Shown in pieces: positions 7,426-22,311 of a stretch of DNA of 64,000 nucleotides. Every line of letters begins with the position of its first letter. The stretch's first letter is position 1. Source of the stretch: an uncultured Candidatus Saccharibacteria bacterium (GTDB lineage Bacteria; Patescibacteriota; UBA1384; XYA2-FULL-43-10; 1-14-0-10-43-13); NCBI GenBank assembly GCA_964419835.1, contig CAYQPT010000002.1, positions 6,732 through 70,731 of the forward strand, read 5' to 3'. A program made the position numbers and the translations under genes. Under the pieces are notes generated by a model. It searched no databases. It was not told the DNA's origin and worked only from the letters and a program-made list of their open reading frames with translations.

Positions 7426-7932
7426 CTAATCATTCTGCTCTGAAAAATTATATGCGGAGCCCGGCATGTCTCCTCCGAGCGGGTTCGTTTTATTTATCTC
7501 TCCATCGGATTTATTTTCTAATGCACAAAATAAAGCAAAATTCTGAGCATTACCTTCCACCCCATCCGTCTGATACAAGTAATTGTTTTGTCCCGTTGGA
7601 TCAGAAGGAACCGTTTTCATGTATGTGCTATCAAGCCCTGTATTTTCGGCGGTTACTACAACGGCAGATTTTTGATATTTGAAGGTATTTGGATTCTTGT
7701 CAGCATAATAAATACTGAGCGTTTTTTTTATTTGGGTAAGATCACTTTTTCTTTGTGCATCGCGGGTTTTCATTTTTGCATTGGATATTGCAACTAAAAT
7801 CATTGACGCCAAAATCCCGATGATGGCGATCACTACTAACAGTTCGATAAGCGTAAAGCCACGCTTACTCACTGCAAGCAATTCAATTAAGGTAAATCCT
7901 TTTCTTCTCATCTGGAATATCTTGTTTATCAT
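7426..7932 (-). CDS. type IV pilin-like protein with a tandemly duplicated prepilin N-terminal motif
   Basis: The protein reads MRRKGFTLIELLAV-SKRGFTLIELLVVIAIIGILA, i.e. two in-frame copies of the K/R-G-FTLIELL motif. They are encoded by synonymously diverged DNA (AAAGGATTTACCTTAATTGAATTGCTT vs CGTGGCTTTACGCTTATCGAACTGTTA). Confidence 0.7.
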   Translation of the reverse strand: MINKIFQMRRKGFTLIELLAVSKRGFTLIELLVVIAIIGILASMILVAISNAKMKTRDAQRKSDLTQIKKTLSIYYADKNPNTFKYQKSAVVVTAENTGLDSTYMKTVPSDPTGQNNYLYQTDGVEGNAQNFALFCALENKSDGEINKTNPLGGDMPGSAYNFSEQND

Positions 7933-8072
7933 TCGAACAAAGTGAGAACTAAAAATACTTGTTAAACTTCTCGTCCTTCTTCTTTCGAAAAATATTTCTT
8001 TTTAGCCCTTCAGTTGCTAGAGAAATTACCCGTTCGACTTTGCTCAGGGCAGGGTTTCTCTAGCATAGAAAA

Positions 8073-8498
8073 CTAAAATCCAGATTTGGTAGAGCCAGAA
8101 AAACCACCAGCAATTGTTTTTGCGGGAGTAGATCCATCGTTTGCAGCCAATGTCCAGTCTGCAGCCCCTGCAGCAGATGCAGCAGTGTTGCCTGAAGCTG
8201 AATAAGCCCAAGATCCATAGCCGTTTGCACCCGATAAAGTCGGCCAGCTGCCGGTCGCCACAGTGCTTCCTGTGCAGATTGTGGCTCCGTTTGCAGGCTT
8301 GACAACTGCTTCGCTATTTGTTGTGCAGATTGAAGCCGTCTTTGCAGCTTGTTGTAAATCGGCAAATGCCTTGGTATCAATTGCTTTTGTTCTTGCGCCG
8401 GCAACATTGATGATAATGATGGTTGCCAAAATACCAATGATAGCAATAACAACCAACAACTCGATTAAGGTAAAACCTTTTTTAAACATTTTTTTCAT
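8073..8498 (-). CDS. candidate major type IV pilin
   Basis: Start moved to MKKMFKKGFTLIELLVVIAIIGILA. An RBS (GGAGGAGG) sits 8 nt upstream at 8505-8513. Short leader, and an Ala/Gly/Ser/Thr-rich C-terminal domain of about 140 aa total. It is the smallest pilin and lies directly upstream of pilC. Confidence 0.7.
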   Translation of the reverse strand: MKKMFKKGFTLIELLVVIAIIGILATIIIINVAGARTKAIDTKAFADLQQAAKTASICTTNSEAVVKPANGATICTGSTVATGSWPTLSGANGYGSWAYSASGNTAASAAGAADWTLAANDGSTPAKTIAGGFSGSTKSGF

Positions 8499-8603
8499 TT
8501 TTTTCCTCCTCCCTGTTAAGCATCCTCGAGGATACACTTAAGCAGGGTAAATTATTACTGCCCGATCGACCTGACAGGCGATTTTTATAAATAACTCTAA
8601 CTT

Positions 8604-9809
8604 CTATTTCAACTGTGCAATATTATAAATTGGCACCAAAACGGCAAAAACCAAAAAGGCAACGCCTACTCCCATTATGACCAAAACAACCGGCTCAACT
8701 AAAGTGGAAATAGTTTTAATCATTTGGTCAGTTGCTTCCTCGTAATAATCAGCCACCTTGTTTAGCACTCCATCTAACTGTCCCGTTTCTTCTCCAACTG
8801 CCGCCATCTGCCCCACAAAAGCCGGAAAGGTCGGGTCTTTTGACAACTGGACTGACAATGGCACGCCTTTTTCAACCTGACTAGCTGCGTGCGAAATACT
8901 CTCTTCAAAAACAATGTTATTCATCACACTTCCGCCAATTTTTAATGCATCCAAAAGTGGCACTCCTGCTCCAATCAACATGGCCATAACTTTGGAAAAG
9001 CGATACATGTAGATGCCTTCAAAAACTTTTTTAATCACAGGAATTTTAAGCTGAAGCTCATCTTTCGTTCTCGCTCCGGTATTTGAACTTAGCCAGAATT
9101 TCAAAAAAACCACTAAGGCAATGGCTATCAAAAGAACGAGCCACCACTTTGTTTGAACAAACCCCGAAAGGGCAAGCAACATTCTTGTGGCTAGGGGCAA
9201 ATTTGCACCGGCGCTATCAAAAACAGTTTTTAACTGTGGGATAACTACTAAAAGCATATATGTTCCAATCCCCAACAATGCAACCAAAATGAAACCGGGG
9301 TAGTACATTGCCCCTTTTACCTTGCCGTTAAAATTGTTGTCATTTTCCAATTGATCCGCCTGTTGCTTTAATACAACATCAAGTTTGCCCGTACTCTCCC
9401 CCGCCGTCACAATAGAAATAAATACTTTATCAAAAGCTTCCGGATGCTTTGCTAAGGCGTTAGAAAAACTCATTCCTTCTTCTAGATCCTTGAATATTTC
9501 AGTATATATGCTTCGTAAATAGTCAGTTCGGGCTTGGGTGCTAGTAATCTTAATTGCCTTAGGAAGGGGAAGTCCGGCCGAGATCATTGTTGAAATTTGC
9601 CTTGCAAAGATGGAGCGGTCTTTAGCATTTACCTTTTTGCCAAATCCTATCACCCTGCTATTGGAACTGCCTTTTTCAGAAGTAATATCTAAAGTAATTA
9701 AATTGTGTTTAACTAAAATACCCTCCGCCTCACTCTGACTTGCAGCTTTGACAGTACCGGTAATAATTTCGTTCCTACTATTTTTTGCTCTGTATAGAAA
9801 AGTTTTCAT
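8604..9809 (-). CDS. pilC: type IV pilus assembly platform protein PilC (GspF family)
   Basis: 401 aa. Two GspF-type repeats with three TM segments. Confidence 0.85.
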   Translation of the reverse strand: MKTFLYRAKNSRNEIITGTVKAASQSEAEGILVKHNLITLDITSEKGSSNSRVIGFGKKVNAKDRSIFARQISTMISAGLPLPKAIKITSTQARTDYLRSIYTEIFKDLEEGMSFSNALAKHPEAFDKVFISIVTAGESTGKLDVVLKQQADQLENDNNFNGKVKGAMYYPGFILVALLGIGTYMLLVVIPQLKTVFDSAGANLPLATRMLLALSGFVQTKWWLVLLIAIALVVFLKFWLSSNTGARTKDELQLKIPVIKKVFEGIYMYRFSKVMAMLIGAGVPLLDALKIGGSVMNNIVFEESISHAASQVEKGVPLSVQLSKDPTFPAFVGQMAAVGEETGQLDGVLNKVADYYEEATDQMIKTISTLVEPVVLVIMGVGVAFLVFAVLVPIYNIAQLK

Positions 9810-9840
9810 TTAGCTTAATGCTTACTGAATTACTGCTTAG

Positions 9841-10908
9841 TTAATAGACCATCATCTTGAAGCTCTTTGGATCCTGCACCCAAGTAAGGGCATCTTCAAG
9901 TGTGATGTCACCACGGGAAACATATTCGGCCAAAACCTTGTCTAAACTAATCATGCCTTCAGAGGCAGAAGTTTGAATTACATTTGGTATTTGATAAGAT
10001 TTTCCCTCGCGAATTAAACTCTTAATAGCTGAATTTGCAATCATAATCTCAGCAGCCATCACCCGTCCACCATTAACTTTAGGAATTAAACGCTGTGACA
10101 CAACACCAAGCAGAACCGATGCAAGCTGGCTTGAAACCTGTTGACGCATATATGAGGGAAAAACGCTGATTATACGATCTGCGGTCTGCGCAGCTGAGTT
10201 TGTATGCAAAGTGGCAAAAACCAAGTGACCTGTTTCTGCGATTGTTAATGCCGCTTCAATCGTTTCCAAGTCTCGCATCTCACCCACAAGCACTACATCA
10301 GGGTCTTCCCGCAAAGCCGATCTTAGCGCGGTGGCAAATGAGTCGGTATCCGGACCAATTTCCCGCTGAGAAACTATACTTTTATTGTGTTCAAAAACAT
10401 ACTCAATCGGATCTTCAATAGTAATGATATGTTTTCTTTGGTTTTCATTAATCCCGTTTATAAGCGCTGCTAGCGTCGTGGATTTACCCGACCCGGTTGG
10501 GCCAGACAACACCACAAAACCTTGGCTATGCTGAGTGAATTTTTCCAAGATCGGAGGAAGACCGAGCTCTTTAATTGATTTGATTTGCTTTGGAATTAAT
10601 CGAAGAGAGACTGCTTCACATCCTTTTTGATAGTATATGTTCACCCTAAAACGCATGTCCTTATATCCAAAAGAAAAATCAAGTTCTTTTGTCCTCTTGA
10701 ACTTTTCTATCATGGCCGGAGGAGTAAAACTGGAAATAAATTCTGTTAATTTTTCATTGGTACAAACAGGAGCTTCAGGAATCACAAGAAGGCGTCCGTC
10801 GATTCTTACAGTTGGAGCAATACCAACTGTAAAATGAAGGTCGGATGCTTTCTTTCCAATCGCAAAATCGAGATACGAAACCATCTCATCGTTTAATTTG
10901 TTTTCCAC
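9841..10908 (-). CDS. pilT: twitching-motility/retraction ATPase PilT
   Basis: 355 aa. Walker A GPTGSGKSTT, and the signature helix IITIEDPIE typical of PilT-type ATPases. Confidence 0.85.
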   Translation of the reverse strand: MENKLNDEMVSYLDFAIGKKASDLHFTVGIAPTVRIDGRLLVIPEAPVCTNEKLTEFISSFTPPAMIEKFKRTKELDFSFGYKDMRFRVNIYYQKGCEAVSLRLIPKQIKSIKELGLPPILEKFTQHSQGFVVLSGPTGSGKSTTLAALINGINENQRKHIITIEDPIEYVFEHNKSIVSQREIGPDTDSFATALRSALREDPDVVLVGEMRDLETIEAALTIAETGHLVFATLHTNSAAQTADRIISVFPSYMRQQVSSQLASVLLGVVSQRLIPKVNGGRVMAAEIMIANSAIKSLIREGKSYQIPNVIQTSASEGMISLDKVLAEYVSRGDITLEDALTWVQDPKSFKMMVY

Positions 10909-11116
10909 AATTCCCTCCTAGAAGCTCTGCGAGTTTACAATATTATTATATGTTAAGTAGAAAGAAGAAGCAACCAATTTAAGTCTAAAGCCCTAATTTC
11001 TAATATCAAATGAAAATCCAAATGCTTAAATGTCTAAAAAGATTCGGAATTTATATTTTAGTTTTTTATTTGTCATTTGAAATTTTGATTTTGTAATTTG
11101 CTAATCTCTAATTGGT

Positions 11117-12652
11117 CTATCCTTGCATCGTTGCCTGGTAAACTTCATCGATCGTTGTCAGCCCTTGAAGTGCTTTAATAATTCCATCTTGCTTCATTGT
11201 AATCATGCCCTGCTTCAACACCGCATCTTTAATCTCATTGGCAGATCTTCTCGCAATAGCCAAGTCTTCAATAGCCGGATTCATGCTCATCACCTCAAAA
11301 ATACCGATTCTGCCTTTAAAACCTTGTGAGCATTCTGAACAACCCTTTCCATAGTAAAATTTGAGTTCCTTGGGAATAAGTGCTCTATCTTTAACATTAT
11401 TAGGTGATATTTTTTCTAATTCAACTTTGATCTGTTCTAGCAATTTTGGGGGAATTTTAACTTCCTCTCTGCACTTCGGACAAATTAGACGAATTAATCT
11501 CTGCGCAATAATTAAATCCACGGCAGAAGTAATAAGAAATGGTTCAACGCCCATATTTATAAGCCGAGGCAGTGCTCCAGCGGTATCATTCGTATGAAGT
11601 GTGGTCAAAACCAAATGTCCGGTTAAAGCGGCATGTGTTGCCATGCCGGCAGTTTCAGCATCACGAACCTCACCTACCATTATAATGTTAGGATCCTGCC
11701 TTAGTACGGAACGCAATCCCGACGCGAAGGTAAAGCCGATGTCTGGTTTGACTTGGCACTGGTTTACTCCCGGAGTCTCGTACTCCACCGGATCTTCAAG
11801 TGTAACAATATTTTTTCCAGGTAAGTTTAGCCGATTAATAATTGCGTTTAGCGTAGTTGATTTTCCGGAACCGGTCGGACCTGTGGATAAAATTAAACCC
11901 CATGGCTTAACAATTGAGGCCATTGTTTTGTCAATAGCGCTTCCCTGCATTCCAAGGTCCTCCAAGGAAAGAACCTTTTGGCTTTTATCGAGAATTCTGA
12001 GAACTATCTTCTCACCGTGAACAGTTGGAAGAGAAGAAACTCTGACATCAACTTCACGGTTTTTAAAAGCGACCTCAAAACGACCATCCTGAGGGATTCT
12101 CGTTTCATCAATTTTTAACTTTGCCAAAATTTTTACTCTGGAAATAATTGGAGGATGCATATTTATTGAAATTTTTACAATGTCTACGAGCACTCCATCA
12201 ATTCTACACCTAACTCGGAGAGTTTTTGATTGTGGCTCTATGTGAATGTCGGAAACCCCTTTATTCAAACCAAAATTAATAACTGCTGCAACAATTTTTG
12301 GAACATACCCCTCTTTGACTATTTCATCTAGTATTTTTGTATCAGTGATGTCAGTTTGGATTAAAGATCCTAAATTATCATTCTCCAAACCATTGCTCGG
12401 CATGGGAGTGCTTAATTCTTCGCTTGAAGGCAATGCTCTTGTTTGCTGCTTCTGATTTGCGATGGGCAGCGGAGCTTTATTTGGCTGATCCTTAGAAGGC
12501 GCGACTGTAGTGTTTTGTGCTGAAGAGGGTTGTGATGGTGTTTGCGTCTGACTATCATCTTTTGCAAACTCAGGATCAAAAAAACCGCTCAATGAGATGG
12601 TTTTTCCTCCAGATGGTGCTGCATTTTTTAATGCTGTTTGGTTCTGATCCAT
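11117..12652 (-). CDS. pilB: type IV pilus assembly ATPase PilB (GspE family)
   Basis: 511 aa. Walker A TGPTGSGKSTTL. A tetracysteine zinc motif (CPKC...CSEC). Low-complexity N-terminal region. Confidence 0.85.
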   Translation of the reverse strand: MDQNQTALKNAAPSGGKTISLSGFFDPEFAKDDSQTQTPSQPSSAQNTTVAPSKDQPNKAPLPIANQKQQTRALPSSEELSTPMPSNGLENDNLGSLIQTDITDTKILDEIVKEGYVPKIVAAVINFGLNKGVSDIHIEPQSKTLRVRCRIDGVLVDIVKISINMHPPIISRVKILAKLKIDETRIPQDGRFEVAFKNREVDVRVSSLPTVHGEKIVLRILDKSQKVLSLEDLGMQGSAIDKTMASIVKPWGLILSTGPTGSGKSTTLNAIINRLNLPGKNIVTLEDPVEYETPGVNQCQVKPDIGFTFASGLRSVLRQDPNIIMVGEVRDAETAGMATHAALTGHLVLTTLHTNDTAGALPRLINMGVEPFLITSAVDLIIAQRLIRLICPKCREEVKIPPKLLEQIKVELEKISPNNVKDRALIPKELKFYYGKGCSECSQGFKGRIGIFEVMSMNPAIEDLAIARRSANEIKDAVLKQGMITMKQDGIIKALQGLTTIDEVYQATMQG

Positions 12653-12690
12653 AATATAATTGACTAAAACTAATTACGCTTTATTGCTTC

Positions 12691-13968
12691 TCAATCATAA
12701 ATACTAAGCGCATATTCTATATCGGCCGGCTTGGTGATAAAAACCTCAGAAGGATGTTGATTTTTTATAAATAAAAGGGCCTTTTTTGTCATCTCCGACT
12801 TAGGGTCATCGGTTGCCAACATCAAATTACCCTCGTCATTTTCTCCAAAAACAACCACTCTGTATTTGGTTATAAAATTTTTTGGTAGCTTAGTTAGATA
12901 AGTTTTGGGAATCTTTCCAATCAAGCTTATTGTCTTTTCATATCCTTCAGTTTTTATTATATTCTCTTTAGCTGTGTTTTGAAACTTTTCCCTGCTTTCT
13001 TTTTGGACAAAAATCGAGTCGACCGTCAGAGTTGGAGATTTCGCCTTAATGATAGTTTTCTTAATGTTGGAAAAAGAAAACTTTAAGTTGTCCTGTAATA
13101 TAGTTTTAAACTCCTCAGCTTTCTCTTTCCTATTCAATTTTGAAGTTTTTGTGACAGGTTGTTCGATCTGAAAAGAGGCGTTGCTATCATAATTATTTAA
13201 AACGAAGTCAATATCATTTGCCGAGGTGGCAAACAGCTCAAGCTTAACTTTGTTTTCTTTTTCAATGTAGTCCAGAATTTTTTTTGTTAACGGAGAATCC
13301 GGTTTCTCAGAAGCCACGAGATAGTGGCCTGTGATATTTTCTCCGAAAACCAAAACTCGATATTTTTCAATAAAATTTTTCGGAATTTTATTAAGACATT
13401 CACGTGGAATATTTCGGTTGCGCAAATAAACCACCGGCAAACTCCCCTTTTTCATCAGTAAAGATTTATCCTGCTTGTTTTTATATTGTTTAAACGCTTC
13501 TTTGAAATCTTCGATGCCGGTTATAAACAATTCTAAATTTGCTTTTTTGTTTTTAAATAATTTTTTAAGAGCCGAAAGAAAACCCAATGGTAAATCAGCC
13601 GGCTCGGTTATGGCGATTTTAAGAAGTGTTCCCTCTGAATCAAAAGGAATTATTCCAAGCTTGGAAGATATTTTTTCAGGAATAATGTCCAGTGTTTCCC
13701 GGTCAATTTTTATATTGGAAAGTTCAATAAAAGGCAATTTTAAAATTATACTATAAGCTTTATTAATTGTATCTTTAGTTACCAGATGGTTCTTAAGTAG
13801 GAAAGTTTCGATCTCTCGATTTGTTCTAAAATTATTTTTCAGTTTCACGGCATCTTCCAATTCCAAAATTCCCTGCAAAACAAAAACATCCAGTATCGAC
13901 TGGTTAAAAAGCATTGCGGATGGTATGCCTAAAGACGAATTGTATTTCTGCTTGGAAAACATAGACAA
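12691..13968 (-). CDS. stand-alone protein made of repeated GspE/PilB N-terminal (T2SSE_N) domains, no ATPase domain
   Basis: 425 aa. Internal repeats KIPKNFIEKYRVLVFGENITGHYLVASEKPDSPLTKKILDYIE and KLPKNFITKYRVVVFGENDEGNLMLATDDPKSEMTKKALLFIK, plus an N-terminal copy, resemble the T2SSE_N fold. No Walker motif is present. Confidence 0.55.
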   Translation of the reverse strand: MSMFSKQKYNSSLGIPSAMLFNQSILDVFVLQGILELEDAVKLKNNFRTNREIETFLLKNHLVTKDTINKAYSIILKLPFIELSNIKIDRETLDIIPEKISSKLGIIPFDSEGTLLKIAITEPADLPLGFLSALKKLFKNKKANLELFITGIEDFKEAFKQYKNKQDKSLLMKKGSLPVVYLRNRNIPRECLNKIPKNFIEKYRVLVFGENITGHYLVASEKPDSPLTKKILDYIEKENKVKLELFATSANDIDFVLNNYDSNASFQIEQPVTKTSKLNRKEKAEEFKTILQDNLKFSFSNIKKTIIKAKSPTLTVDSIFVQKESREKFQNTAKENIIKTEGYEKTISLIGKIPKTYLTKLPKNFITKYRVVVFGENDEGNLMLATDDPKSEMTKKALLFIKNQHPSEVFITKPADIEYALSIYD

Positions 13969-14123
13969 CGTTTGTTAAATTCAACCAAAAAAACTTCAAA
14001 GCCCAAATAACAAATGACAAATAAAAATCCAAATTCTAAATTTTCAAATTATTTGGCATTAAATCATTAGATATTTTGTTTGAAATTAGAAATTAGGATT
14101 TTGAAATTATTAATTGCTGGTCC

Positions 14124-14381
14124 TTACTCTGCCGTAAACGGATTCGTTTTGCCCATTTTATCCACAGGGGTAGAAATTGGAATATCACTGCTTTTATCAA
14201 GACCGGATAAAACATTTTCAGCATCTTTTTTTACGCTTTCGATTTCAACCGGCTTAAGATTATCCTCAACGGCAGGATTAGCGTTATAGTCCTTTGACAT
14301 TTGCCAGAGCCAGAAAAAACCACCGACGACTGCAACTACCAGGATTAAGCTGCCCACTATACTCAAAGTTTTCATTTTCAT
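14124..14381 (-). CDS. small membrane-anchored protein in the PilP position of the pilNO operon
   Basis: 85 aa. N-terminal TM/signal (LSIVGSLILVVAVVGGFFW). No lipobox Cys. The assignment rests on position only. Confidence 0.3.
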   Translation of the reverse strand: MKMKTLSIVGSLILVVAVVGGFFWLWQMSKDYNANPAVEDNLKPVEIESVKKDAENVLSGLDKSSDIPISTPVDKMGKTNPFTAE

Positions 14382-14980
14382 TTTTGCACCCCCGTTGCCG
14401 CACTTGCGGTTGAGCTTGCAGTTACTGCTGAAGATTCTCTCTTATAAACCTCGAACTGAAGTGCCAGAGAAGTTGTTTTCCCATCGGATGATACGGAGTA
14501 GGTCAAGCTTTTAATATTTGTGAAACGAATGTCTTTTTCAAGGGCGGTTATCATTTTATTTAGATTTTCAAACGTTCCATTAACCGAAAAAGATACTGAG
14601 ACAGCATTCTTAGGTGTTGCAGCAGCTGCGCCACTGGCTGGAGCTTGAGCAGCAGCACTGGCGATTTGAATACTAGGGATAATAGTTTCGCTCTTAGCGG
14701 CGATAGCTTCCAATTCAGTAATTAGATTTGGCGTATCCTTGTCAGAAGGGATGGCGATAAACAAACGGTTCACAATATCTCCTAACTGATCAAGAGAATT
14801 TTTCGTAGTTTGCAATGATTCCAATTTTACTTTAGACAATTCTATTTCCTTGTTAACTTTAGCAACCTGCTCTTGATTTTTTTGATAAGCTGGAATAATT
14901 TGCTTCCAGCAATATACAAAAGAAGCCACTGCAATTAGCACTGCCAAAAGCCCATAAAATCCACTATTGGATCGCTTCAT
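14378..14980 (-). CDS. PilO-like type IV pilus alignment protein
   Basis: 200 aa. N-terminal TM, then a coiled-coil segment, then a C-terminal core domain. The gene overlaps and follows a PilN-like gene. Confidence 0.5.
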   Translation of the reverse strand: MKRSNSGFYGLLAVLIAVASFVYCWKQIIPAYQKNQEQVAKVNKEIELSKVKLESLQTTKNSLDQLGDIVNRLFIAIPSDKDTPNLITELEAIAAKSETIIPSIQIASAAAQAPASGAAAATPKNAVSVSFSVNGTFENLNKMITALEKDIRFTNIKSLTYSVSSDGKTTSLALQFEVYKRESSAVTASSTASAATGVQK

Positions 14981-15677
14981 TGTTTCCTCCTTCAGTGGTC
15001 CCTATTCCGCTTGTACTTCCGGTGCTTTTTGCTTCTGCTGCTTTTTGCTTCTGCTTGTCAACTTTAGCGCTTATAGCAAATACTGTTTCCATCTTATCGT
15101 CGGTAGTTGTGTTTGCGACCGATAATAAATCAACATTGGACAAAGTGCTCCAGCTTTTAAGCGACATCATTAAATCCGCAACGGCACGATAACCCTTAGT
15201 AGTGCCATTAATGTTCAGTGAACCGTCGGCAGTGACCGCAATAGTGCTTAATTGAACATCTTTTGTCAATTTACTGTTTAAATCGGTCAAAAATGAGGTA
15301 AAGGAGTATTTTTCATTATAGGCGGTCTTTAACTGCTTAACGGATAGCTTAAAATCCTGAGCTTTATTTTCAATCTCAACTGAACCTGGTGAAGAAATTT
15401 GCTGCGCAAGAGAGTCTTTCTCGGTTTTTTTATCAGCGAGGGCGTCTGATTCACTTTTGTTCATCCACCAGAAAAATAATGTTGCCAACACTGAAAAGAG
15501 AGCAACCATCCAAGTCAAAGCAAGGGCTGTATTAAAGCTTGAGTGTTCTCCAAAACCAGAAAAGCTATCATCAAAGGCATGCTTTGACGCTGCATTTGCT
15601 GCTTGTGCAGCCGGTGTTTCAGCAACACTCTGTGGTGCAACTTGTGGTCCTGCCCCCTGACTTGTTTCAGGATCCAT
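14964..15677 (-). CDS. PilN-like type IV pilus alignment protein with an extended cytoplasmic N-terminus
   Basis: 237 aa. About 45 aa of Ala/Pro/Gln-rich cytoplasmic tail, then one TM (ALALTWMVALFSVLATLFFWWM), then a periplasmic domain. Confidence 0.5.
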   Translation of the reverse strand: MDPETSQGAGPQVAPQSVAETPAAQAANAASKHAFDDSFSGFGEHSSFNTALALTWMVALFSVLATLFFWWMNKSESDALADKKTEKDSLAQQISSPGSVEIENKAQDFKLSVKQLKTAYNEKYSFTSFLTDLNSKLTKDVQLSTIAVTADGSLNINGTTKGYRAVADLMMSLKSWSTLSNVDLLSVANTTTDDKMETVFAISAKVDKQKQKAAEAKSTGSTSGIGTTEGGNNEAIQ

Positions 15678-15861
15678 ATTCCCTCCAATTATCCGATCAC
15701 CAAGATAAAACCTGTCTTTATTTTATTTTAATTTAATTCAAATATTTATGCAAATATTTCGTTTTCGTTTTTGGTTTACGAGGCCAGTATTGTTATTGGG
15801 TTACGGTTACGTTACCGAACAACCTAACCGATACGGGCATCGTTACCCTAACCGTTAGTCG

Positions 15862-17823
15862 TTACTGTTTTGTTTCTACCGGATGCGGCATATTGAGAAA
15901 CCTAAATCCTGGAGGCCAAGCACTGTCCAGAGCATAATCATAATAGAATCTTGCGTTTGCAGCGCTTATCGTAAAGGCGTTCGCCACAAATGAACCGATT
16001 AACTCCACATTACCACTTGATGCTGTGATACTACTATTTGGACAATAAATTGATGCTTGAATTTTATTGTTACCTAAAATTCTAACCGACCCAGTCACAA
16101 TAAAACCCAGTCGATCTGCAGAAGTTGCCGGAAGAATATCTATTCCATTGTTTATGATCAAATCACCATTTACGATAATAGTGCCTCTGCCATGATATTT
16201 TTTATCTACACTCCTGACTGTTAATGTACCGGGGAGCGTGTTCCATACTTTGCCTTCCGGAAATTTAGACGCATCAGCGTTTGTGATATCATCCATCATA
16301 GTAGTAGTCGTCGGAGCCGGTTCAGTCGGCGTTTGCAGATACCAATCAGATCGAGTCCCGGTATCGGCATTTGCTACTGGCGCCTCACCTTTAAGTGCAT
16401 TTATCTTGTTGGAATTTTTGTCAAATTCAGCTCCACTCAAAGTGGATTGAGCATTCGGGTTCAAAGTATAGCCACCCGCTCTCCAAGTTGCATCTGAACC
16501 GGGGTCTCCTGCACCAGATTGTTGATGTAAATTTCTACCCCAAAAGGCAAAATTATTCAGACCACTACCATATACGTCACCAGTGACCATTTTAGCGGGA
16601 TAGAATAACACGGCTGTTTCAATCACTGGCTTATTGGCTACGGAAGTTCTACTGGAGACAACTCTGATACTGGAGTTTGAGCTATTCGACTGAAAACAGG
16701 ATGTGTAGGGACGAACGACCCCAACCAATGCGTTATTTATACAATTAACCAATTCGGTATTTCTAAATCCAAATAATTCATCTGTGCTGCTGCCATTATT
16801 CTGTCCTGCACTTTTCAGAGAATTGTAAACCGTTTCATTTCCGGTAAACCCTCCATAAAAAGACATTTGAACCGTTGGACCCGCATTGACATTAAGAGGC
16901 AAAATATTCGTACCCCAAGTCACTCCGGCTATTATCAACCCGTCAGTATCATTACTCATGCCATGCGTTATGTCACCAACGCCACCTGTTCCCTCATCAA
17001 ACATCCAACGAGCCACCAAGTTCTCCGGATGAAGTTGGCCGTTTTCAAAAACATAGAGAGGGTCCAGTGTACCGCATTGTGCGAACTCAACATCACTCAA
17101 AGCAACTCTGTCATAAATTCTAACTTCATCAATCTGGCCCGAATAGTTGCCGGCCGCGTTGCCGATGAAGATAGGATCGGGTGTTGCAGTATCCGGATTT
17201 GCTGTTCCCCCTGCTATATTAGTAACTGCTGGTGACTTATAAGTTGTATCAAAGCCGATAGCCACAGGTTGATTAACTGCCAGAAGATCAATAGAGAACA
17301 TGATATGATGCCAGTTTCCATCAAATAATGTATTTCTATCAATAAGATCGCTTCTTAGAAGATATCCCTTTGTGGAGGATCCAACGGAAACCTGAACCGA
17401 ATAATGAGTTGCATCGGATAAATGAATCCCGATCGCCCAACCTTGCTTACCTGCGACATTGGCGTCTGTAGTCATGCGATTACCCATACTGATAATGGTT
17501 TGGTCTGGATCAGTTTGATTGGTTGGCTTTATCCAAGCCATCACAGTAAATGGTTTTAAATCTCCATTCTCGTCCTCTCCTCCAAGTGTGGAGATTAATG
17601 TATCCGGATTCTCCTCCGTAACTGTATTATCTACTCTTATGGAACCGTTTTTAGCAAGCATAATACTGCTTCCCGGATTTCCTCCACTGGCAGGAGTGGA
17701 GCTAAATGTAGCTTCTGTCTGGCCAACCATTATCTCAGGAAAATCGTTTTCTGCCATAGCAAAAGAAGTCCACATTAGAAAGACCAGTATGAAAGCAATA
17801 ATTTTTGTGTATTTTTTACTCAT
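15862..17823 (-). CDS. secreted LamG/concanavalin-A-like lectin-domain protein
   Basis: 653 aa. Signal peptide (KIIAFILVFLMWTSFAMA). The LamG-type signature GQIDEVRIYDRVALSDVEF. A long beta-rich C-terminal region. Confidence 0.6.
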   Translation of the reverse strand: MSKKYTKIIAFILVFLMWTSFAMAENDFPEIMVGQTEATFSSTPASGGNPGSSIMLAKNGSIRVDNTVTEENPDTLISTLGGEDENGDLKPFTVMAWIKPTNQTDPDQTIISMGNRMTTDANVAGKQGWAIGIHLSDATHYSVQVSVGSSTKGYLLRSDLIDRNTLFDGNWHHIMFSIDLLAVNQPVAIGFDTTYKSPAVTNIAGGTANPDTATPDPIFIGNAAGNYSGQIDEVRIYDRVALSDVEFAQCGTLDPLYVFENGQLHPENLVARWMFDEGTGGVGDITHGMSNDTDGLIIAGVTWGTNILPLNVNAGPTVQMSFYGGFTGNETVYNSLKSAGQNNGSSTDELFGFRNTELVNCINNALVGVVRPYTSCFQSNSSNSSIRVVSSRTSVANKPVIETAVLFYPAKMVTGDVYGSGLNNFAFWGRNLHQQSGAGDPGSDATWRAGGYTLNPNAQSTLSGAEFDKNSNKINALKGEAPVANADTGTRSDWYLQTPTEPAPTTTTMMDDITNADASKFPEGKVWNTLPGTLTVRSVDKKYHGRGTIIVNGDLIINNGIDILPATSADRLGFIVTGSVRILGNNKIQASIYCPNSSITASSGNVELIGSFVANAFTISAANARFYYDYALDSAWPPGFRFLNMPHPVETKQ

Positions 17824-17856
17824 TCAGGTTTAAATTCTAAATTATAATCATGGCAT

Positions 17857-20496
17857 CTAGTAACTCTTAACCAAACAATTGTAATGCAGGTTACTAATAT
17901 CACCCAGCGCATCGGCAGTTGCGTTAAACTTAACTGTCCCGTCAGAAAAAGTAGGATCAACATATGGAACAGTGGATGTTAATGCAATCGGCTCACAAAA
18001 TTGTCTATTATCAGTTGATTTATACAATTCATCAGTGATTAAATTTGAACTGTTTGGAACTAAATTACTCACCATAACCCAAACCTGTATTGTGTCATTT
18101 AACTGCAGGGAATACGGGTTAAAGTTGTTTGCCGGGCTAAGCCCGCTCCTGCTTATTGGGATTAATACCTTTCTTACACTTGAACTAGTCGGTGATGTCG
18201 GGTTGACAACGATCCATCCGCCGCCACCGCCTCGGCCGTCGGTCGGTCGATACAAAAGACTTCTGTCCCCTCCTCTGGCAGACATCTGATATAAAGTATT
18301 ATTTGCAATACCATTGACCTCATATACTCCTTGTTCTCCATCAAATGTCCCCCCCTCTACATTTATTCCATAAAAACTGGTCATGCCACCATATGAAATG
18401 GCGTTTGTCCGGATTACAATGCTTCCTCCTGCTCCGCCACCAGCCCCCACACTACAGCCATCATTCATAAACAAATAACCAATTTCTCCGTCGGCATATA
18501 TTCCGCCTGTGTCTGCACCGCTGAATGTCAGATTAAAGTCAATTGAATCAGCTGACAATGTAACCCTGCCACCACCATTTCCACCTTCTGAACAAGAAGT
18601 ATCATCACCCCCACCATCATAGCCCGAGGCGCCTCCGCCCGCTCCCCATTCTTGGCCGGCACCGTTCATATAGTCATATTTTTTACTGCCGTTAGTGTCG
18701 CCTGTGCCCACCTTTCCGTTGCCTCCGGCCCCACCGCCACCGCCGGATGAATAATCATACTCATTATATGCGGCTCCCCCACTCCATTCTGTGGCGCTTA
18801 TCTTTGGGCCAAATCCATAATTCTTCCGATAAGCTGTATCGCTTTTCGTGCTTGCACCTAAGGATCCTATCAATCGTCCCATTGTATTACCATTACACCC
18901 TCTTCTATCATCCAAGACATAGCCAGCATAAACCGTATACCATGAATAATATGCTCCAGGGTATCCTTTTCCTGTTACATCAATTTTTGCTCTCGATTCA
19001 AAAGTAATTTTATTGTCGACGGCAATATCAACCTTTTTCCATCTGGCGGAACCAACAGTCTCATCCGCCAAAGAGCCGTTATTATTCAAATCTTGCTTAT
19101 TAACACCATCACCGGCAGGACCAAGTATTTCAGAAGCAAGCAATCCACTATGAGTTAAAACTGCTTTATTTATAAGCTTTAAGCTTTTAAAATGGCGTTT
19201 AGAATCACAATTGCTATCGTTTTGAGCATTGCATTGCTGCCCTGCATTGGCACCGGTTTGAAAGACTTTTTCTTCTCCCATATCAATCGTTATCCCCTCA
19301 GCTATCCCATCATCATTCGTATCACCATCAATAACCACATCTCTGTTTTCGCAAATTGCCGGAATGGCAGTGCCTGATTTCAAATAGCAAAAAAAGTTTA
19401 GAGAATTATAAGTTATCTTCACTATACCTCCCCCTCCTCCACCGCCATACCCGTTAACACTCGAACTCCCCCCATTCGCGGAAATGTTATAAAATGCCGG
19501 ACTCGGAGGAGCGACATTTGTAATTCCCGAAGGAGCAACATCTGCTCCAGATTTTCCGCCTGAAACATTTGGTCCAATATTGGCCGAATTTAAATTATCT
19601 GAAGAAAAAACATTTGTCGTCAGGCGAATAGTTCCGCCGGCTCCACCCCCTCCAGTTGTTACAGTGGCACCAGTAGCAGACCCTCTGGCATAAAAACCAC
19701 TAGTTTCCATCTTAATGATTTCCTCCTTTGCCCAGATATCAATTATCCCTGCGCCTGCCTGCCCAACTCTTGTAGTACCATTACAGCTTGCTGCACCTCC
19801 CCCACTCCCTCGATCGATAGTGTCAATATTTGACCCGGCAAAGATACCACCCAAAGCGACAACGGGAGAAAGCCGGGCTAATCCGTTTTGCCCATTACCC
19901 CCAAGGCCTCCTCCACCACCAGCACAGTCAGTAGCTACTACTGACATCAAGCTGCCAGGTGCCGGTCCTCTGGCGGGAGTAACTAAATCGACCGCGCCAC
20001 CCCAATACCCATCCCTATCTACATAAAAACTTGACCAATCAGACATAGTAAGCTTTTTTTCTATTATCCAATTAACCTGTTTTTCAGTTTCTTGGGCCAT
20101 GGAATTAGTTGTTGCCGACAGAAAAGCTGTTGTTACCCGAGCACCTTGTTTCATTGTTACGTTATTAAAATGATGAAGACCCGTGCTCACTACATAAGCA
20201 CTGGTGCCCGGAATACCGCTGATAGTCAAATTTGTATTATCTAGAGTGTTAGCCGGTAAGACAAATGGGACACTCGGTGTGCCTCCGGTAATTTCGCAAC
20301 TATAAATGCCATCCCCATCAGGTGTTGGATCGCAAGTCGCACCAGCTGGAGGAATTGGCGCTGCTGCTTTCGTTCCGTTTGGATTTTTGGTTGCCGCGAT
20401 CGAAAGCAGAAAGGCCGACAAAAACAGCACTGCAACTAAAAGCATGGCATTAAACTTTTTTCTGCGATTCAACAAATTTGTAATCGATATTTTCAT
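17857..20496 (-). CDS. large secreted glycine-rich repeat protein (putative beta-helix/adhesin-like surface protein)
   Basis: 879 aa. N-terminal signal/anchor. Numerous GGGG(A/G) tracts and NxS/T-rich segments. Only 3 nt separate it from the Kelch protein gene. Confidence 0.5.
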   Translation of the reverse strand: MKISITNLLNRRKKFNAMLLVAVLFLSAFLLSIAATKNPNGTKAAAPIPPAGATCDPTPDGDGIYSCEITGGTPSVPFVLPANTLDNTNLTISGIPGTSAYVVSTGLHHFNNVTMKQGARVTTAFLSATTNSMAQETEKQVNWIIEKKLTMSDWSSFYVDRDGYWGGAVDLVTPARGPAPGSLMSVVATDCAGGGGGLGGNGQNGLARLSPVVALGGIFAGSNIDTIDRGSGGGAASCNGTTRVGQAGAGIIDIWAKEEIIKMETSGFYARGSATGATVTTGGGGAGGTIRLTTNVFSSDNLNSANIGPNVSGGKSGADVAPSGITNVAPPSPAFYNISANGGSSSVNGYGGGGGGGIVKITYNSLNFFCYLKSGTAIPAICENRDVVIDGDTNDDGIAEGITIDMGEEKVFQTGANAGQQCNAQNDSNCDSKRHFKSLKLINKAVLTHSGLLASEILGPAGDGVNKQDLNNNGSLADETVGSARWKKVDIAVDNKITFESRAKIDVTGKGYPGAYYSWYTVYAGYVLDDRRGCNGNTMGRLIGSLGASTKSDTAYRKNYGFGPKISATEWSGGAAYNEYDYSSGGGGGAGGNGKVGTGDTNGSKKYDYMNGAGQEWGAGGGASGYDGGGDDTSCSEGGNGGGRVTLSADSIDFNLTFSGADTGGIYADGEIGYLFMNDGCSVGAGGGAGGSIVIRTNAISYGGMTSFYGINVEGGTFDGEQGVYEVNGIANNTLYQMSARGGDRSLLYRPTDGRGGGGGWIVVNPTSPTSSSVRKVLIPISRSGLSPANNFNPYSLQLNDTIQVWVMVSNLVPNSSNLITDELYKSTDNRQFCEPIALTSTVPYVDPTFSDGTVKFNATADALGDISNLHYNCLVKSY

Positions 20497-20499
20497 TTT

Positions 20500-22119
20500 T
20501 TACTCCACCGTACAATAATAGTTCACCGTGGCAGGTCCCGCAGAAGTTACTGAAAGATTTGTCCAAACCACCTTTTTTGTTGTAATTCCACCAACAGTAC
20601 TGCTAGTTATGACTCCGCCACTAGAGGGGGGGGAGAATGTCCCGTAATTGTCCGGATTACACTTGAGTCCCGTCAAACTACCCTGTTGAATCGCCAGAGC
20701 CGTATCCGTCACTGTAACATATCCATCGTCAGATGAAGGAAGAAGTGAAATTACGAGGTTAATCCTGATTACATCTCCTTTTTGTAGTGCGTAAGCGTTG
20801 TAATTTGTATTAACCTCGCTATTTCCGGTTGTGCCATTTCTCTTTTCGGCAAGCAACCTCTTGCTTATCTTAACTCCGGAGGCCGTGGCAGAGGTTGGTG
20901 AGATATTGCTCAGAGTAATTTGATAAATGGAAGATGTGGCGCTTCCTCCAAATGTGTATATTTTATCATTATAAAAGACCGAGCCATACCCAATTAAGGA
21001 CGGGGGGGTCTTACTGGTTATGGTAAGCGTCTGTGCCTGTATGTCAAATTCGACCACTTCATAATAAGTAACACCAAGGGGAGTCCTTTTGACTAATAGC
21101 GTAATTTTTGAGTTTGCAGAGTCTAACGCAATCCCTTGTGGCACAGAAGAAGTAGCAAAAATAGTTCCGGGGTTGGCGACTGCAGTAAATGTCTCGGCGC
21201 CAGATGTGGGGTCAAATATGAAAATGCCGTTGCTCGTATTGGGGGAAGCATTTACAGCGCAATCACCAATATCACCGCTCGTTATGGTCGAACAAATGTC
21301 ACCGCCAAAAACATACGCCCTTGTAGTCACTGGATCAAAAACCACAGAAGCATGAGCTCGGTAGCCAAAAGAATCCAACCCGACAGGGGTTATTTTCGTC
21401 ATCGTGAGCGTAGTAGTATCTAGTACAAATACTTCCTTGAGATGATGATAGGTGCTTCGTCGTCCAGAAATCGTTGAATATTCCCCACCCATTATGTAAA
21501 TTTTATTGTCATAATAAAAAGCGGAAGCACCGTCCCTAGGATGAGCTATGAAGTCGGCATAACCGGGTCCAGTTATATTTAATTGATCTCCGCTTGCCAC
21601 TGTTGGCGCAACCCCGTTCCCATAAAGAGAGCATTTAGCAGGGAATAGACCTTGAATATCCCGCCCGCCGTTAAAATCTATCTCTGTGATACTGGCAGTG
21701 GGGTTACCTACTTGAACGTTTCCCCAGCCCATTTTACCTCCTATTAAATACGCTTTTTTGGTGGTCGGATTAAACACAGCAGCAGAATTCTGCCTCTGCC
21801 AGCAGCTATCATGAGTGCCGCCAGGGGTGAGAGTCAAGCTTGTCGTAGACATGTTAGACATATCTACTTTTTGAAGAAGAATATACCAAGAATGGAAATA
21901 TCCTCCAATCAAATAAGTAATTGCCCCATCATAAATTGTCATTGGATTTGTGACCGGAATAGGTAAAGTCTGAGGCAACAATGTTGCAGCATCTGTGCTT
22001 CGAGGATTATTCACAATCATTAAACTGCCGAACATAAATGCCAAAAGAATCAGAGACATTAATGTTGAGTATCTGAATCGTCTACGAGAATTAAGTTTTT
22101 GCGATAACGATCGTTCCAA
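20500..22119 (-). CDS. secreted Kelch-repeat beta-propeller protein
   Basis: 539 aa. Signal/TM at the N-terminus. Kelch-type blades occur at roughly 50-aa spacing (AYLIGG, IYIMGG, AYVFGG, IYTFGG). A beta-sandwich-like domain sits at the C-terminus. Confidence 0.6.
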   Translation of the reverse strand: MERSLSQKLNSRRRFRYSTLMSLILLAFMFGSLMIVNNPRSTDAATLLPQTLPIPVTNPMTIYDGAITYLIGGYFHSWYILLQKVDMSNMSTTSLTLTPGGTHDSCWQRQNSAAVFNPTTKKAYLIGGKMGWGNVQVGNPTASITEIDFNGGRDIQGLFPAKCSLYGNGVAPTVASGDQLNITGPGYADFIAHPRDGASAFYYDNKIYIMGGEYSTISGRRSTYHHLKEVFVLDTTTLTMTKITPVGLDSFGYRAHASVVFDPVTTRAYVFGGDICSTITSGDIGDCAVNASPNTSNGIFIFDPTSGAETFTAVANPGTIFATSSVPQGIALDSANSKITLLVKRTPLGVTYYEVVEFDIQAQTLTITSKTPPSLIGYGSVFYNDKIYTFGGSATSSIYQITLSNISPTSATASGVKISKRLLAEKRNGTTGNSEVNTNYNAYALQKGDVIRINLVISLLPSSDDGYVTVTDTALAIQQGSLTGLKCNPDNYGTFSPPSSGGVITSSTVGGITTKKVVWTNLSVTSAGPATVNYYCTVE

Positions 22120-22311
22120 TACCCCTCCGAAGTTAGCCAGTAACTAGGATTATCCTTCAGAACTCCTTGGCATTTTCATACAAAAAAATGCGTGTTTTGT
22201 GTACAAATTTAGTATACCTAAAATAATAGTACTGTTACAACTGGGGAAAAATATTTCCTTAAACTATAAACTTGTTTGATCTTGTTTATATCTATAATAT
22301 TGTAACTGCCT

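Follow-up and report, generated by a model that had tools for sequence, protein, structure and literature searches.

Three exported proteins beside a type IV pilus locus appear to belong to a conserved pilus-linked adhesin system in a probable Patescibacteria bacterium

The window, a stretch of DNA of 64,000 nucleotides, contains three consecutive minus-strand genes encoding proteins of 539, 879 and 653 aa, here called genes 1, 2 and 3. A sequence-only reading had placed them 3 and 33 nt apart, in the same orientation and just upstream of a pilN locus, and the ORFs match this description exactly. Genes 1 and 2 are separated by 3 nt, genes 2 and 3 by 33 nt, and gene 3 and pilN (14964-15677) by 184 nt. 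Gene 1 starts with TTG, 5 nt past a GGAGG ribosome binding site. The features of the three-gene set are as follows.

22312-22626, opposite strand: gene for an MGMT-type DNA-binding protein, the next gene beyond gene 1
22120..22311, minus strand: intergenic region upstream of gene 1, with a promoter-like site at 22240-22211 (consensus match only)
20500..22119, minus strand: gene 1, Kelch β-propeller protein, 539 aa (ORF, Kelch Pfam matches)
21988..22119, minus strand: leader of gene 1, residues 1-44 (MERSLSQKLNSRRRF, a hydrophobic stretch of ~20 residues, NNPRSTDA)
20905..21957, minus strand: approximate Kelch propeller region (Pfam Kelch matches at residues 193-274 and 354-409)
20503..20892, minus strand: C-terminal domain (CTD) of gene 1, residues 410-539 (~120 aa, all-β, FNPYALQxGD motif, terminal YYCTVE)
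17857..20496, minus strand: gene 2, Gly-rich tandem β-helix protein, 879 aa (ORF)
20365..20496, minus strand: leader of gene 2, residues 1-44 (MKISITNLLNRRKKF, a hydrophobic stretch, KNPNGTKA)
19387..20349, minus strand: Gly-rich β-helix unit 1, about residues 50-370 (internal repeat, A2 consensus)
18223..19344, minus strand: Gly-rich β-helix unit 2, about residues 385-758 (repeat, consensus, model)
17866..18222, minus strand: CTD of gene 2, residues 759-877 (CTD HMM, i-E 3.5e-37)
15862..17823, minus strand: gene 3, secreted LamG plus β-solenoid (DUF7305-module) protein, 653 aa (ORF, Pfam, family alignments)
17752..17823, minus strand: Sec-type signal peptide of gene 3, residues 1-24, ending in AMA (read from sequence; conserved across the family)
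17716..17742, minus strand: motif FPEIMVGQT (LPExMVGQT in the family), near the predicted mature N-terminus
17104..17559, minus strand: LamG/ConA-like domain, residues 89-240, inserted within the core of the family
15868..16869, minus strand: conserved core module, residues 319-652, whose C-terminal part is the DUF7305 β-solenoid, ending in FYYDYALDSAWPPGFRFLNMP
15678..15861, minus strand: intergenic region between gene 3 and pilN, with a GGTAACG/CGGTTAGG-rich imperfect hairpin, a promoter-like element and a GGAGG ribosome binding site

Each of the three proteins has one hydrophobic segment, N-terminal in every case and with none elsewhere, which agrees with the N-terminal signal or anchor proposed for them earlier. 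The proposed absence of sortase, S-layer homology and choline-binding motifs also held: the LP.TG regular expression matched none of the three proteins, and neither SLH domains nor choline-binding repeats were among their Pfam matches. The Pfam prepilin profile N_methyl gave no match at E≤0.1, and the pilin pattern G[FM]T[LI][IL]E was absent from all three, as was any Pfam match to the PilY1/PilC β-propeller domain (PF05567/IPR008707). By these tests, all three proteins fall outside the pilins, the PilY1 proteins and the surface proteins anchored by sortase or SLH domains. NCBIfam profiles provided nothing useful. PHROGs had no match for genes 2 and 3 and a single marginal one (E 6.6e-4) for the Kelch protein. 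A phage origin was rejected.

In gene 3 the suspected LamG/ConA-type fold was recovered by Laminin_G_3 (PF13385) at residues 89-240, with 55.7 bits against a cutoff of 27.6, and EVRIYDRVALSDVE is found at residue 233. DUF7305 (PF23981) matched with 35.5 bits (cutoff 27), covering only positions 92-183 of the 185 in the profile. This C-terminal match had been missed in the sequence-only reading, as had a duplication in the Gly-rich protein. The gene 3 family consists of ~370-aa secreted proteins with a signal peptide, LPExMVGQ, and a module ending in DUF7305. At 50% clustering it has 210 representatives with E<1e-3, 150 of which were listed, and most of the 150 are core-only proteins of ~360-390 aa. 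LPExMVGQ is present in most of those listed, and P29, M32, V33, G34 and Q35 are invariant in family alignment A1. This motif was considered as a mimic of a pilin N-terminus; the idea was dropped because its spacing from the predicted signal peptidase site varies. DUF7305 was matched in 21/51 core family members. The family HMM skips the LamG block of gene 3. Among 50 long members the modules were LamG_3 (29), vWA (4), FG-GAP (2), RCC1 (1) and fn3 (1), modules that are typical of adhesins. Since most members have no adhesive module, adhesion is not the core function of the family.

An AF2 model of gene 3 built from 8 sequences had a mean pLDDT of 45.5, with ~110 solenoid residues at 75-84, and only the solenoid and LamG parts were usable. 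For the β-helix and β-solenoid proteins, the top structural matches were non-enzymatic adhesins and ice-binding proteins. Because the model is of low confidence, the likeness to ComZ and ice-binding proteins is a provisional one at the level of the fold. No sequence similarity to any PDB chain was found with gene 3 or the A3 profile, and the ice-binding protein domain DUF3494 (PF11999) matched neither the window protein nor 51 + 50 family members.

Genes 1 and 2 share an N-terminal leader and a C-terminal domain of ~120 aa, both of which had escaped the sequence-only reading. The CTD family is defined in the present analysis by a leader pattern, M(A)K[ILY]SI..L..R+K.R followed by a hydrophobic stretch and [KR]NP...[KR]A, and by a CTD HMM for a ~120-aa FNPYALQ domain with a terminal Y.C.V[QE]. 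Genes 1 and 2 each contain the leader and the C-terminal domain, and the leader pattern was present in every CTD protein found. The HMM identified the CTD of gene 1 with an i-E of 9e-30, and BLASTP aligned the two CTDs at E 3e-4. No Pfam match to the CTD was obtained even at E≤1. A prepilin signal was rejected as an identity for the leader, which has no Gly-1, no Glu5 and no N_methyl match. The leader could be an uncleaved membrane anchor that holds these proteins at the cell surface, off the filament. The mechanism of surface retention had been called unclear. It is no longer a complete blank: genes 1 and 2 have their leader and CTD in common, and the solenoid module of gene 3 is conserved.

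The Kelch blades noted in gene 1 were borne out by two Pfam profiles above cutoff, Kelch_6 (35.9 bits, cutoff 25.3) and Kelch_KLHDC2_KLHL20_DRC7 (51 bits, cutoff 50). These matches represent a propeller family distinct from PilY1/PilC. Searches of PDB sequences produced only marginal matches in the Kelch region (best E 0.009). For gene 2, the "dozens of GGGG tracts" described earlier were an overstatement; the protein has 16.2% Gly, with 10 runs of at least 3 G and 5 runs of at least 4 G. Residues 192-362 of this protein resemble residues 584-767 (E 2e-15), and the duplicated pattern is also seen in the consensus of alignment A2. In the structure model of gene 2 the leader forms a helix at residues 5-36. 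No PDB match was found by sequence, and Foldseek with the Gly-rich model produced nothing significant against the PDB (best E 0.63). The weak matches were cohesin, CnaB and macroglobulin-like β-sandwiches, which probably reflect the CTD of the model.

Downstream of gene 3 lie the pilus genes, with assignments from Pfam and NCBIfam matches for the machinery block.

8604..15677, minus strand: pilus machinery block overall
14964-15677, minus strand: pilN
14378-14980, minus strand: pilO
14124-14381, minus strand: gene for an 85-aa TM protein
12691-13968, minus strand: gene for an MshEN-only protein
11117-12652, minus strand: pilB
9841-10908, minus strand: pilT
8604-9809, minus strand: pilC
2339..8537, minus strand: pilin/PilD block overall, with a 23S-IVP gene and a TrpRS/TyrRS-type gene interspersed
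8073-8537, 7426-7932, 5465-6103, 4895-5461, 4080-4856 and 2339-3001, minus strand: pilins with KGFTLIELL-type leaders
6076-6837, minus strand: prepilin peptidase PilD

All six pilin-like proteins of the locus have the class III motif and retain Glu5. Of the window ORFs that were scanned, none was identified as PilM, PilP, PilQ or PilY1. Nor does the locus offer another candidate for a tip protein: a PilY1 domain, a large modular pilin and a cap pilin lacking Glu5 are all missing from it. Gene 3 adjoins pilN/pilO, the genes of the alignment complex, and not the minor pilins, a position expected of a machine component. The promoter-like element between gene 3 and pilN, TTTGCA-18-TAAAAT at 15754-15725, is found again before pilN in most of the related loci, and in two loci (L012, L019) an extra ORF lies between the LamG-family gene and pilN. 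Co-transcription of gene 3 with pilN is therefore not required. The stability of the hairpin downstream of gene 3 was not significant (z -1.4), and Rfam had no match within 13-24 kb.

Conservation of the link with the pilus locus had been set beforehand as a test of the original proposal, and the link held. The metagenome scan used a profile from the smaller alignment A4, as A3 was too diverse. A gene with the solenoid module was directly upstream of pilN in 14/14 distinct loci having downstream DNA (the window, L002, L003, L007, L009, L011, L012, L014, L016, L017, L018, L019, L020 and L021), across which PilB identity ranges over 60-78%. The order compared was solenoid gene, pilN-pilO-85aa-MshEN-pilB-pilT-pilC, and the pil gene order of the window is repeated in L002, L003, L007, L009, L011, L016, L017 and L018. 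In every locus having upstream sequence, a protein with the Gly-rich part, the CTD or both is encoded directly upstream of the solenoid gene, the position of the Gly-rich partner in the window. The gene in this position ends in the CTD in the window, L002, L003, L005, L007, L009, L011, L014, L015, L016 and L018. A scan of a genome collection yielded one locus only, and the closest relative in that collection was a Patescibacteria MAG.

The two families also occur fused. Eight proteins (P0046, P0053, P0058, P0060, P0061, P0065, P0088 and P0101) carry the CTD (E 1e-6 to 1e-18) and the full module (E 1e-87 to 1e-108) in one polypeptide, and P0131, P0013, P0003 and P0017 join a Gly-rich part to the C-terminal part of the module (E 1e-20 to 1e-65). 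The trio as originally claimed was conserved in part: the CTD protein and the solenoid protein are maintained beside the pil genes, but the Kelch gene occurs only in the window and L002 among the loci compared. A word-indexed homologue search with the Kelch protein found only itself, and the L002 homologue was located by position. The conserved unit is thus the CTD protein plus the solenoid protein rather than a fixed trio, and the Kelch gene is a variable component of the set. Identity between the window and L002 falls from PilT (91%), PilC (83%) and PilB (78%) through PilN (61%), LamG (55%) and Gly-rich (52%) to Kelch (34%), a gradient typical of exposed proteins.

Taken together, these data suggest that the three exported proteins belong to a conserved adhesin system linked to the pilus, in which binding heads can be swapped on a β-solenoid carrier. 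The gene 3 core, ~340 residues with a β-solenoid end like that of ice-binding proteins, would be the carrier that associates with the pilus, most likely at the minor-pilin tip complex. There it may fill the role of the C-terminal domain of PilY1/PilC in proteobacteria, the same role that has been proposed for the β-solenoid of ComZ in Thermus and of PilX in cyanobacteria, both of them tip pilins. The inserted LamG lectin-like domain would serve as a ligand-binding head on this carrier. CTD proteins combine a long leader, a variable passenger and the CTD, the passengers here being a Kelch propeller and a tandem Gly-rich β-helix, and the CTD is proposed to dock them onto the solenoid protein. 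The pilus could thereby present several fast-evolving binding heads for attachment to a host or substrate. We give an even chance to the reading that these are type IV pilus (T4P) accessory proteins in which variable heads dock on a carrier that is not itself a pilin but is the analogue of PilY1 or ComZ/PilX. Observed here are the gene structures, domain content, family membership, strict synteny, fusions and, in part, the similarity of folds; a physical link to the pilus, a place at its tip, docking of the CTD on the solenoid and adhesion are inferred.

Other readings were weighed against this one. The proteins may be tapirin-like, that is, cell-envelope adhesins whose genes only happen to lie next to the pilus locus and share its regulation, retained by an uncleaved N-terminal anchor or by binding to the wall or S-layer, with filament-independent binding and a pilus that supplies reach and retraction. 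We regard this as rather doubtful. The adjacency is strict in 14/14 loci, on a constant side and strand and across deep divergence, and many family members consist of the core alone, with no adhesive domain, which together suggest a functional coupling tighter than neighbourhood alone. Furthermore, the signal peptide of the solenoid protein is of the cleavable type, no anchor motif is present in this protein, and the likeness to tapirins is a generic β-helix fold match with a high rmsd and no sequence similarity.

The core-only members, most of the family, are also what would be expected if the solenoid protein and its CTD partner were built into the pilus machine of these monoderm-like cells as a structural element. 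They could form an extracytoplasmic collar or conduit that crosses the wall or S-layer, or could act together with PilN/PilO, filling the gap of PilM, PilP and PilQ, none of which was detected in the scanned ORFs of the window; LamG, Kelch and β-helix would then be secondary decorations. Gene 3 sits directly before pilN-pilO, in the usual pilM slot, and the conservation of its core module (59-60% identity for P0021 and P0022) is close to that of PilN and PilO (61-63%). However, cytoplasmic PilM is not replaceable by a secreted protein, and the grafted modules and fast divergence of the partner fit exposed ligand-binding proteins better than a static conduit. At pilus tips, β-solenoids are already known from ComZ and cyanobacterial PilX, whereas no basal body is known to contain one (PMC6561018; bioRxiv 10.64898/2026.02.12.705559). 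A machine component is unlikely. It is highly improbable that the proteins are secreted enzymes of the pectate-lyase or tailspike type that degrade polysaccharide or wall material of a host envelope, as Pfam, NCBIfam and PHROGs contained no matching catalytic family, the best structural matches are the non-enzymatic ones given above, and no conserved acidic catalytic motif was identified.

A bolder form of the carrier-and-heads reading, which we offer tentatively, is that some Patescibacteria swapped the usual cap and tip adhesin, a PilX/GspK-type pilin plus PilY1, for an undescribed two-part system in which the solenoid, free-standing and Sec-secreted, caps or plugs the filament and CTD passengers dock in dockerin-cohesin style. 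If so, the heads (Kelch, β-helix, LamG, vWA, RCC1) would be exchangeable by gene shuffling with the pilus machinery untouched, and the conserved leader would be a signal for export or sorting that is specific to the lineage. Nearly all Patescibacteria have T4P, which have been shown to be relevant to host binding in Saccharibacteria. How uncultivated ultrasmall Patescibacteria recognize and hold their hosts is largely unknown, and the two families offer concrete candidates. The three proteins are candidate host-recognition factors, we infer a part for them in host attachment, and the variable heads are the most plausible determinants of specificity. Beyond the LamG, Kelch and DUF7305 domains, the solenoid and CTD families have no prior name or Pfam match. 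No paper mentioning DUF7305 was found, and this domain now gains a genomic context beside T4P genes. If the system is confirmed, the module and CTD HMMs could be used to mine metagenomes for host-range determinants.

Several known systems resemble this one in part. PilY1/PilC of Pseudomonas, Neisseria and Myxococcus is likewise a non-pilin, Sec-secreted protein associated with the T4aP tip and encoded with pil genes, and likewise joins a conserved carrier to variable adhesive modules, with vWA and LamG-type modules in both (PMC8179133). Modular pilins and PilY1 carry PF13385 and vWA as two of their most frequent grafted modules (PMC8179133). The resemblance of gene 3 to PilY1/PilC is functional only, and membership is not established. 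Unlike PilY1/PilC, the window proteins have no PilY1/PilC β-propeller, the proposed carrier is an ice-binding-like β-solenoid, and the gene lies beside pilN/pilO and not within a minor-pilin operon. In the monoderm S. sanguinis, PilB (vWA) and PilC (ConA-like lectin) also present a vWA or LamG/ConA-like module on a T4P-displayed carrier (PMC8179133), but there the module sits on a pilin whose signal peptide is of class III, a type that the three window proteins lack. Tapirins of Caldicellulosiruptor have no sequence similarity to the window protein, and sequence comparison found no homology to their C-terminal β-helix domain. The window protein differs in its tandem Gly-rich helices and family-specific leader and CTD, and cellulose binding is not implied.

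A precedent comes from the Saccharibacteria. In TM7x, PilX1 (a lectin-like jelly roll) and PilX2 (a β-propeller) have no PilD signals, and efficient host binding requires PilX2 (PMC11623550). Compared by description, they and the window proteins are alike in being large, patescibacterial and linked to T4P, with a lectin-like or propeller head and a hydrophobic helix at the N-terminus but without a PilD site that could be predicted. PilX2 is described as an RCC1 propeller with a pilin-like lollipop fold, whereas the window has a Kelch propeller with a distinct leader and CTD. ComZ of Thermus thermophilus and cyanobacterial PilX are tip pilins with an alpha1N helix, a pilin fold and an inserted, triangular ice-binding-like β-solenoid. 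In contrast, the window protein starts with an ordinary, short signal peptide of the Sec type, continues with LPExMVGQ and has no pilin module, its sequence has no detectable similarity to theirs, and its structure model is of low confidence. The analysis suggests that Thermus, cyanobacteria and CPR all use ice-binding-type β-solenoids as elements of the T4P tip.

Three consecutive minus-strand genes lead into the pil cluster, exactly at the positions, lengths and strand reported by the sequence-only reading:

20500-22119, minus strand: gene 1, ORF for the Kelch protein, 539 aa
17857-20496, minus strand: gene 2, ORF for the Gly-rich protein, 879 aa
15862-17823, minus strand: gene 3, ORF for the LamG protein, 653 aa
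14964-15677, minus strand: pilN, 184 nt downstream of gene 3

The gaps are 3 nt between genes 1 and 2 and 33 nt between genes 2 and 3. Gene 1 begins with TTG, five bases past GGAGG, and its homologue in the related locus L002 starts at the same protein position. The upstream neighbour, an MGMT-type DNA-binding protein gene, is on the opposite strand, therefore the trio starts its own transcription unit. Pfam places Laminin_G_3 in gene 3 (residues 89-240, 55.7 bits, cutoff 27.6) and Kelch repeats in gene 1, as had been claimed. Each protein has a single N-terminal hydrophobic segment, in agreement with the signal or anchor assigned to it, and LPXTG is absent from all three. The "dozens" of GGGG tracts ascribed to the Gly-rich protein (16.2% Gly) were too many, because it has 10 runs of at least three Gly and only five of at least four.

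Downstream of the trio, Pfam identified PilN, PilO, an MshEN-only protein, PilB, PilT and PilC. Beyond pilC come PilD and six prepilins with canonical leaders (KGFTLIELL type), among them four minor pilins at 2339-3001, 4080-4856, 4895-5461 and 5465-6103. PilM, PilP, PilQ and PilY1 domains were not found among the scanned window ORFs. PilN is extended at its N-terminus by ~55 residues rich in Ala, Gln and Pro, which lack the INLLP-type motif that usually binds PilM. After pilO comes a gene for an 85-aa protein with one TM segment (14124-14381), kept in all related loci. The N-terminal MshEN domains of PilB have a gene of their own, placed before the one for the ATPase, both in the window and in most relatives; in L003 (18039-20555) and L004 the two parts are joined in one 838-aa fusion. 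The window genes are:

12691-13968, minus strand: MshEN gene, 425 aa
11117-12652, minus strand: ATPase gene, 511 aa

The 168-aa pilin at 7426-7932 (minus strand) has two tandem copies of the prepilin cleavage/N-methylation motif (MRRKGFTLIELLAVSKRGFTLIELLVV...), with Pfam N_methyl on two stretches, which could be a leader-region duplication or an alternative start. A 130-aa ORF listed after pilC (8060-8452, minus strand) is probably spurious. The overlapping frame 8073-8537 (minus strand) encodes a canonical pilin, the counterpart of the N_methyl genes after pilC in L002, L007 and L009, and its real start is at about MKKMFKKGFTLIELL. Two class Ib aminoacyl-tRNA synthetase genes (tRNA-synt_1b) are on the minus strand, one amid the minor pilin genes (3022-4020, 332 aa) and one with a TyrRS C-terminal S4 domain (41132-42301, 389 aa). 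A peptidoglycan-synthesis and division cluster occupies 50685-60712 (minus strand; MurB, Mur ligases, MurG, FtsW, a MraY-type GT4 and a PBP), and a bifunctional PBP is encoded at 42318-45029. The organism thus builds a cell wall, through which any pilus or surface protein has to pass.

Gene 3 also has a C-terminal DUF7305 match (Pfam), a domain for which no mention was found in the literature. An exhaustive HMMER search with the last 314 residues of gene 3 returned 210 representative homologues among 1.84 billion proteins, 87 of them with E<1e-30. Most representatives are 360-390 aa. They begin with a Sec-type signal peptide, a near-invariant LPExMVGQT and then YYGGxTGNEAV, and they end in a ~300-residue module that closes with ...FYYDYxLDxxWPPGFRYLNMP. 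The family HMM matched residues 1-56 and 319-652 of gene 3 and skipped the LamG block, so LamG is an insertion. The inserts in 50 long members were LamG_3 (29/50), vWA (4/50), FG-GAP propellers (2/50), an RCC1 propeller (1/50) and fn3 (1/50).

Related loci were gathered by homologue look-ups, one metagenome scan and one genome-collection scan, which yielded a single locus from a Patescibacteria MAG (JBAZNP010000001). Together with the CPR-like gene context, this relative makes the source of the window a probable member of the Patescibacteria. Gene order was determined using tblastn with the window Pil proteins and hmmsearch with the gene 3 family HMM. The gene for the conserved core of the family, the solenoid module, is directly 5' of pilN on the same strand in 14/14 distinct loci with downstream sequence (the window, L002, L003, L007, L009, L011, L012, L014, L016, L017, L018, L019, L020 and L021). 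The order that follows is pilN-pilO-(85-aa protein)-MshEN-pilB-pilT-pilC. L014, L015 and L016 have a short, insert-free solenoid protein in this slot, and L003 and L018 have the module divided between two genes upstream of pilN. L005 holds a partial copy of the module, in a locus for which no downstream sequence is available. Linkage of the solenoid-module gene to the pilus locus is strict. The suggested check, whether the trio stays beside T4P loci in relatives, came out positive for this gene; the Kelch passenger was found only in the window and L002.

Small PF05635 "23S rRNA intervening sequence protein" genes or similar ORFs occur at varying positions within these clusters; those of L012 and L019 sit after the solenoid gene and before pilN. 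Their behaviour is like that of mobile or dispensable elements:

Window 6900-7271, minus strand: PF05635-type or similar insert
L007 10536-10907 and 16941-17295: PF05635-type or similar inserts
L012 1369-2073: PF05635-type or similar insert
L019 428-1030: PF05635-type or similar insert

An imperfect hairpin rich in GGTAACG/CGGTTAGG comes right after the LamG gene stop (15770-15861, minus strand); its fold falls short of significance (z -1.4), and Rfam gave no match. The segments ACGATGCCCGTAT and CAATACTGGC(C/T)TCGTAA of this region are also present in the distant L007 (7296-7410). Four independent Logan contigs with the LamG gene (L022-L025) all stop ~41 nt past its stop codon, a sign that the element may be repeated or may vary between strains. 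In the MAG locus L011, a (GTAGAAA) tandem repeat of ~10 copies (12545-12620) is directly 3' of the solenoid gene.

Genes 1 and 2 are members of one modular family. Both have the leader M-x-K/R-[ILY]-S-[IL]...L..RRR/KK, followed by a ~20-residue hydrophobic stretch and [KR]NP...[KRD]A. Both end in a ~120-aa C-terminal domain (CTD) with the motif FNPYALQxGDxIxV and the terminus Y-x-C-x-V-Q/E, which has no match in Pfam. A CTD HMM found this domain at the C-terminus of the gene directly upstream of the solenoid gene in 11 loci (the window, L002, L003, L005, L007, L009, L011, L014, L015, L016 and L018), with two copies each in the window, L002 and L005. The leader is identical in type across all CTD proteins of these loci. 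The passenger between leader and CTD is variable: a Kelch propeller occurs there in the window and L002 alone, and elsewhere the sequence is Gly-rich or of another kind. For gene 2, no more than 18 homologues could be detected in 5.8 billion clustered proteins, and its product contains an internal duplication (residues 192-362 versus 584-767, E 2e-15). In L005 (16604-22715) a giant protein of >3,673 aa, with multiple matches to LamG, DUF2341, pentaxin and Vgb_lyase, comes after the CTD proteins and the partial module; the locus ends within its gene.

In eight relatives (P0046, P0053, P0058, P0060, P0061, P0065, P0088 and P0101) the CTD is inside the solenoid protein, at the site of the LamG insert in the window protein (CTD E 1e-6 to 1e-18, module E 1e-87 to 1e-108). 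Four others (P0131, P0013, P0003 and P0017) join a Gly-rich part to the last two-thirds of the module (E 1e-20 to 1e-65). These fusions and the invariant gene order argue for a joint function of the CTD proteins and the solenoid protein, and we infer that they are probably in physical contact.

The AF2 model of gene 3 (8 sequences) was poor overall (mean pLDDT 45.5), with a β-helix and preceding helix at residues ~525-627 (pLDDT 75-84). The module is provisionally assigned a solenoid fold from this model. ComZ, a competence-pilus tip pilin, has an inserted β-solenoid nearest to an ice-binding protein (PMC6561018). All cyanobacterial PilX are reported to carry a ComZ-type solenoid, proposed as a tip "plug" replacing PilY1 (bioRxiv 10.64898/2026.02.12.705559, 2026 preprint). 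Our searches found no sequence-level support for a ComZ or ice-binding-protein-like fold in gene 3.

T4P versatility has been described as a carrier module plus a grafted functional module, where either a pilin or the C-terminal domain of PilY1 is the carrier, with PF13385 (LamG-type) and vWA among the most frequently grafted modules (PMC8179133, Raynaud et al.). The gene 3 family resembles this scheme: its core is conserved, inserts (LamG, vWA, propeller or fn3) are optional, and linkage to pil genes is strict, but its carrier is neither of those two. From this pattern we propose that the solenoid protein may be a non-pilin T4P accessory on the filament, most likely at the minor-pilin tip complex. 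In this genome LamG would serve the solenoid protein as a ligand-binding insert, and the Kelch and Gly-rich proteins, docked there by way of the CTD, would supply additional binding heads. We give this proposal, with its putative pilus association, tip location, docking and adhesion, an even chance of being right. Several observations are consistent with it. All six pilin-like genes keep Glu5, none is large, and the locus offers no alternative candidate for a tip protein. Identity to L002 drops from the machinery (PilT 91%, PilC 83%, PilB 78%, PilN and PilO 61-63%) toward the heads (LamG protein 55%, Gly-rich 52%, Kelch 34%). In TM7x, large proteins linked to T4P bear a lectin-like or propeller head and lack a PilD signal, and one of them is required for efficient host binding (PMC11623550).

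The trio might instead be tapirin-like surface adhesins that merely neighbour the pilus genes, which we consider rather unlikely. A fold match to tapirin, the possible signal anchors and the ORF inserted ahead of pilN in L012 and L019 speak for it. So does a separate promoter-like site for pilN (TTTGCA-18-TAAAAT in the window, with similar elements in most related loci). The three proteins were tested for the characters of a pilin, PilY1/PilC, tapirin (by sequence), DUF3494 ice-binding protein, and sortase or SLH anchoring, and had none of them. The solenoid protein as an extracytoplasmic machine part beside PilN and PilO would explain a gene in the pilM slot, conservation near that of PilN and PilO, and the numerous core-only family members; we think this quite improbable. 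That the trio are secreted β-helix enzymes, a reading whose sole basis is lower-ranked fold matches, is highly improbable.

Adhesive modules displayed by T4P are already known. A free-standing solenoid carrier heading a pil cluster, its leader-plus-CTD partner family and their fusions appear to be undescribed, and no source searched had a name for the three proteins. Functionally, the trio is nearest to PilY1/PilC, the ComZ/PilX solenoid, and PilX1 plus PilX2 of TM7x.
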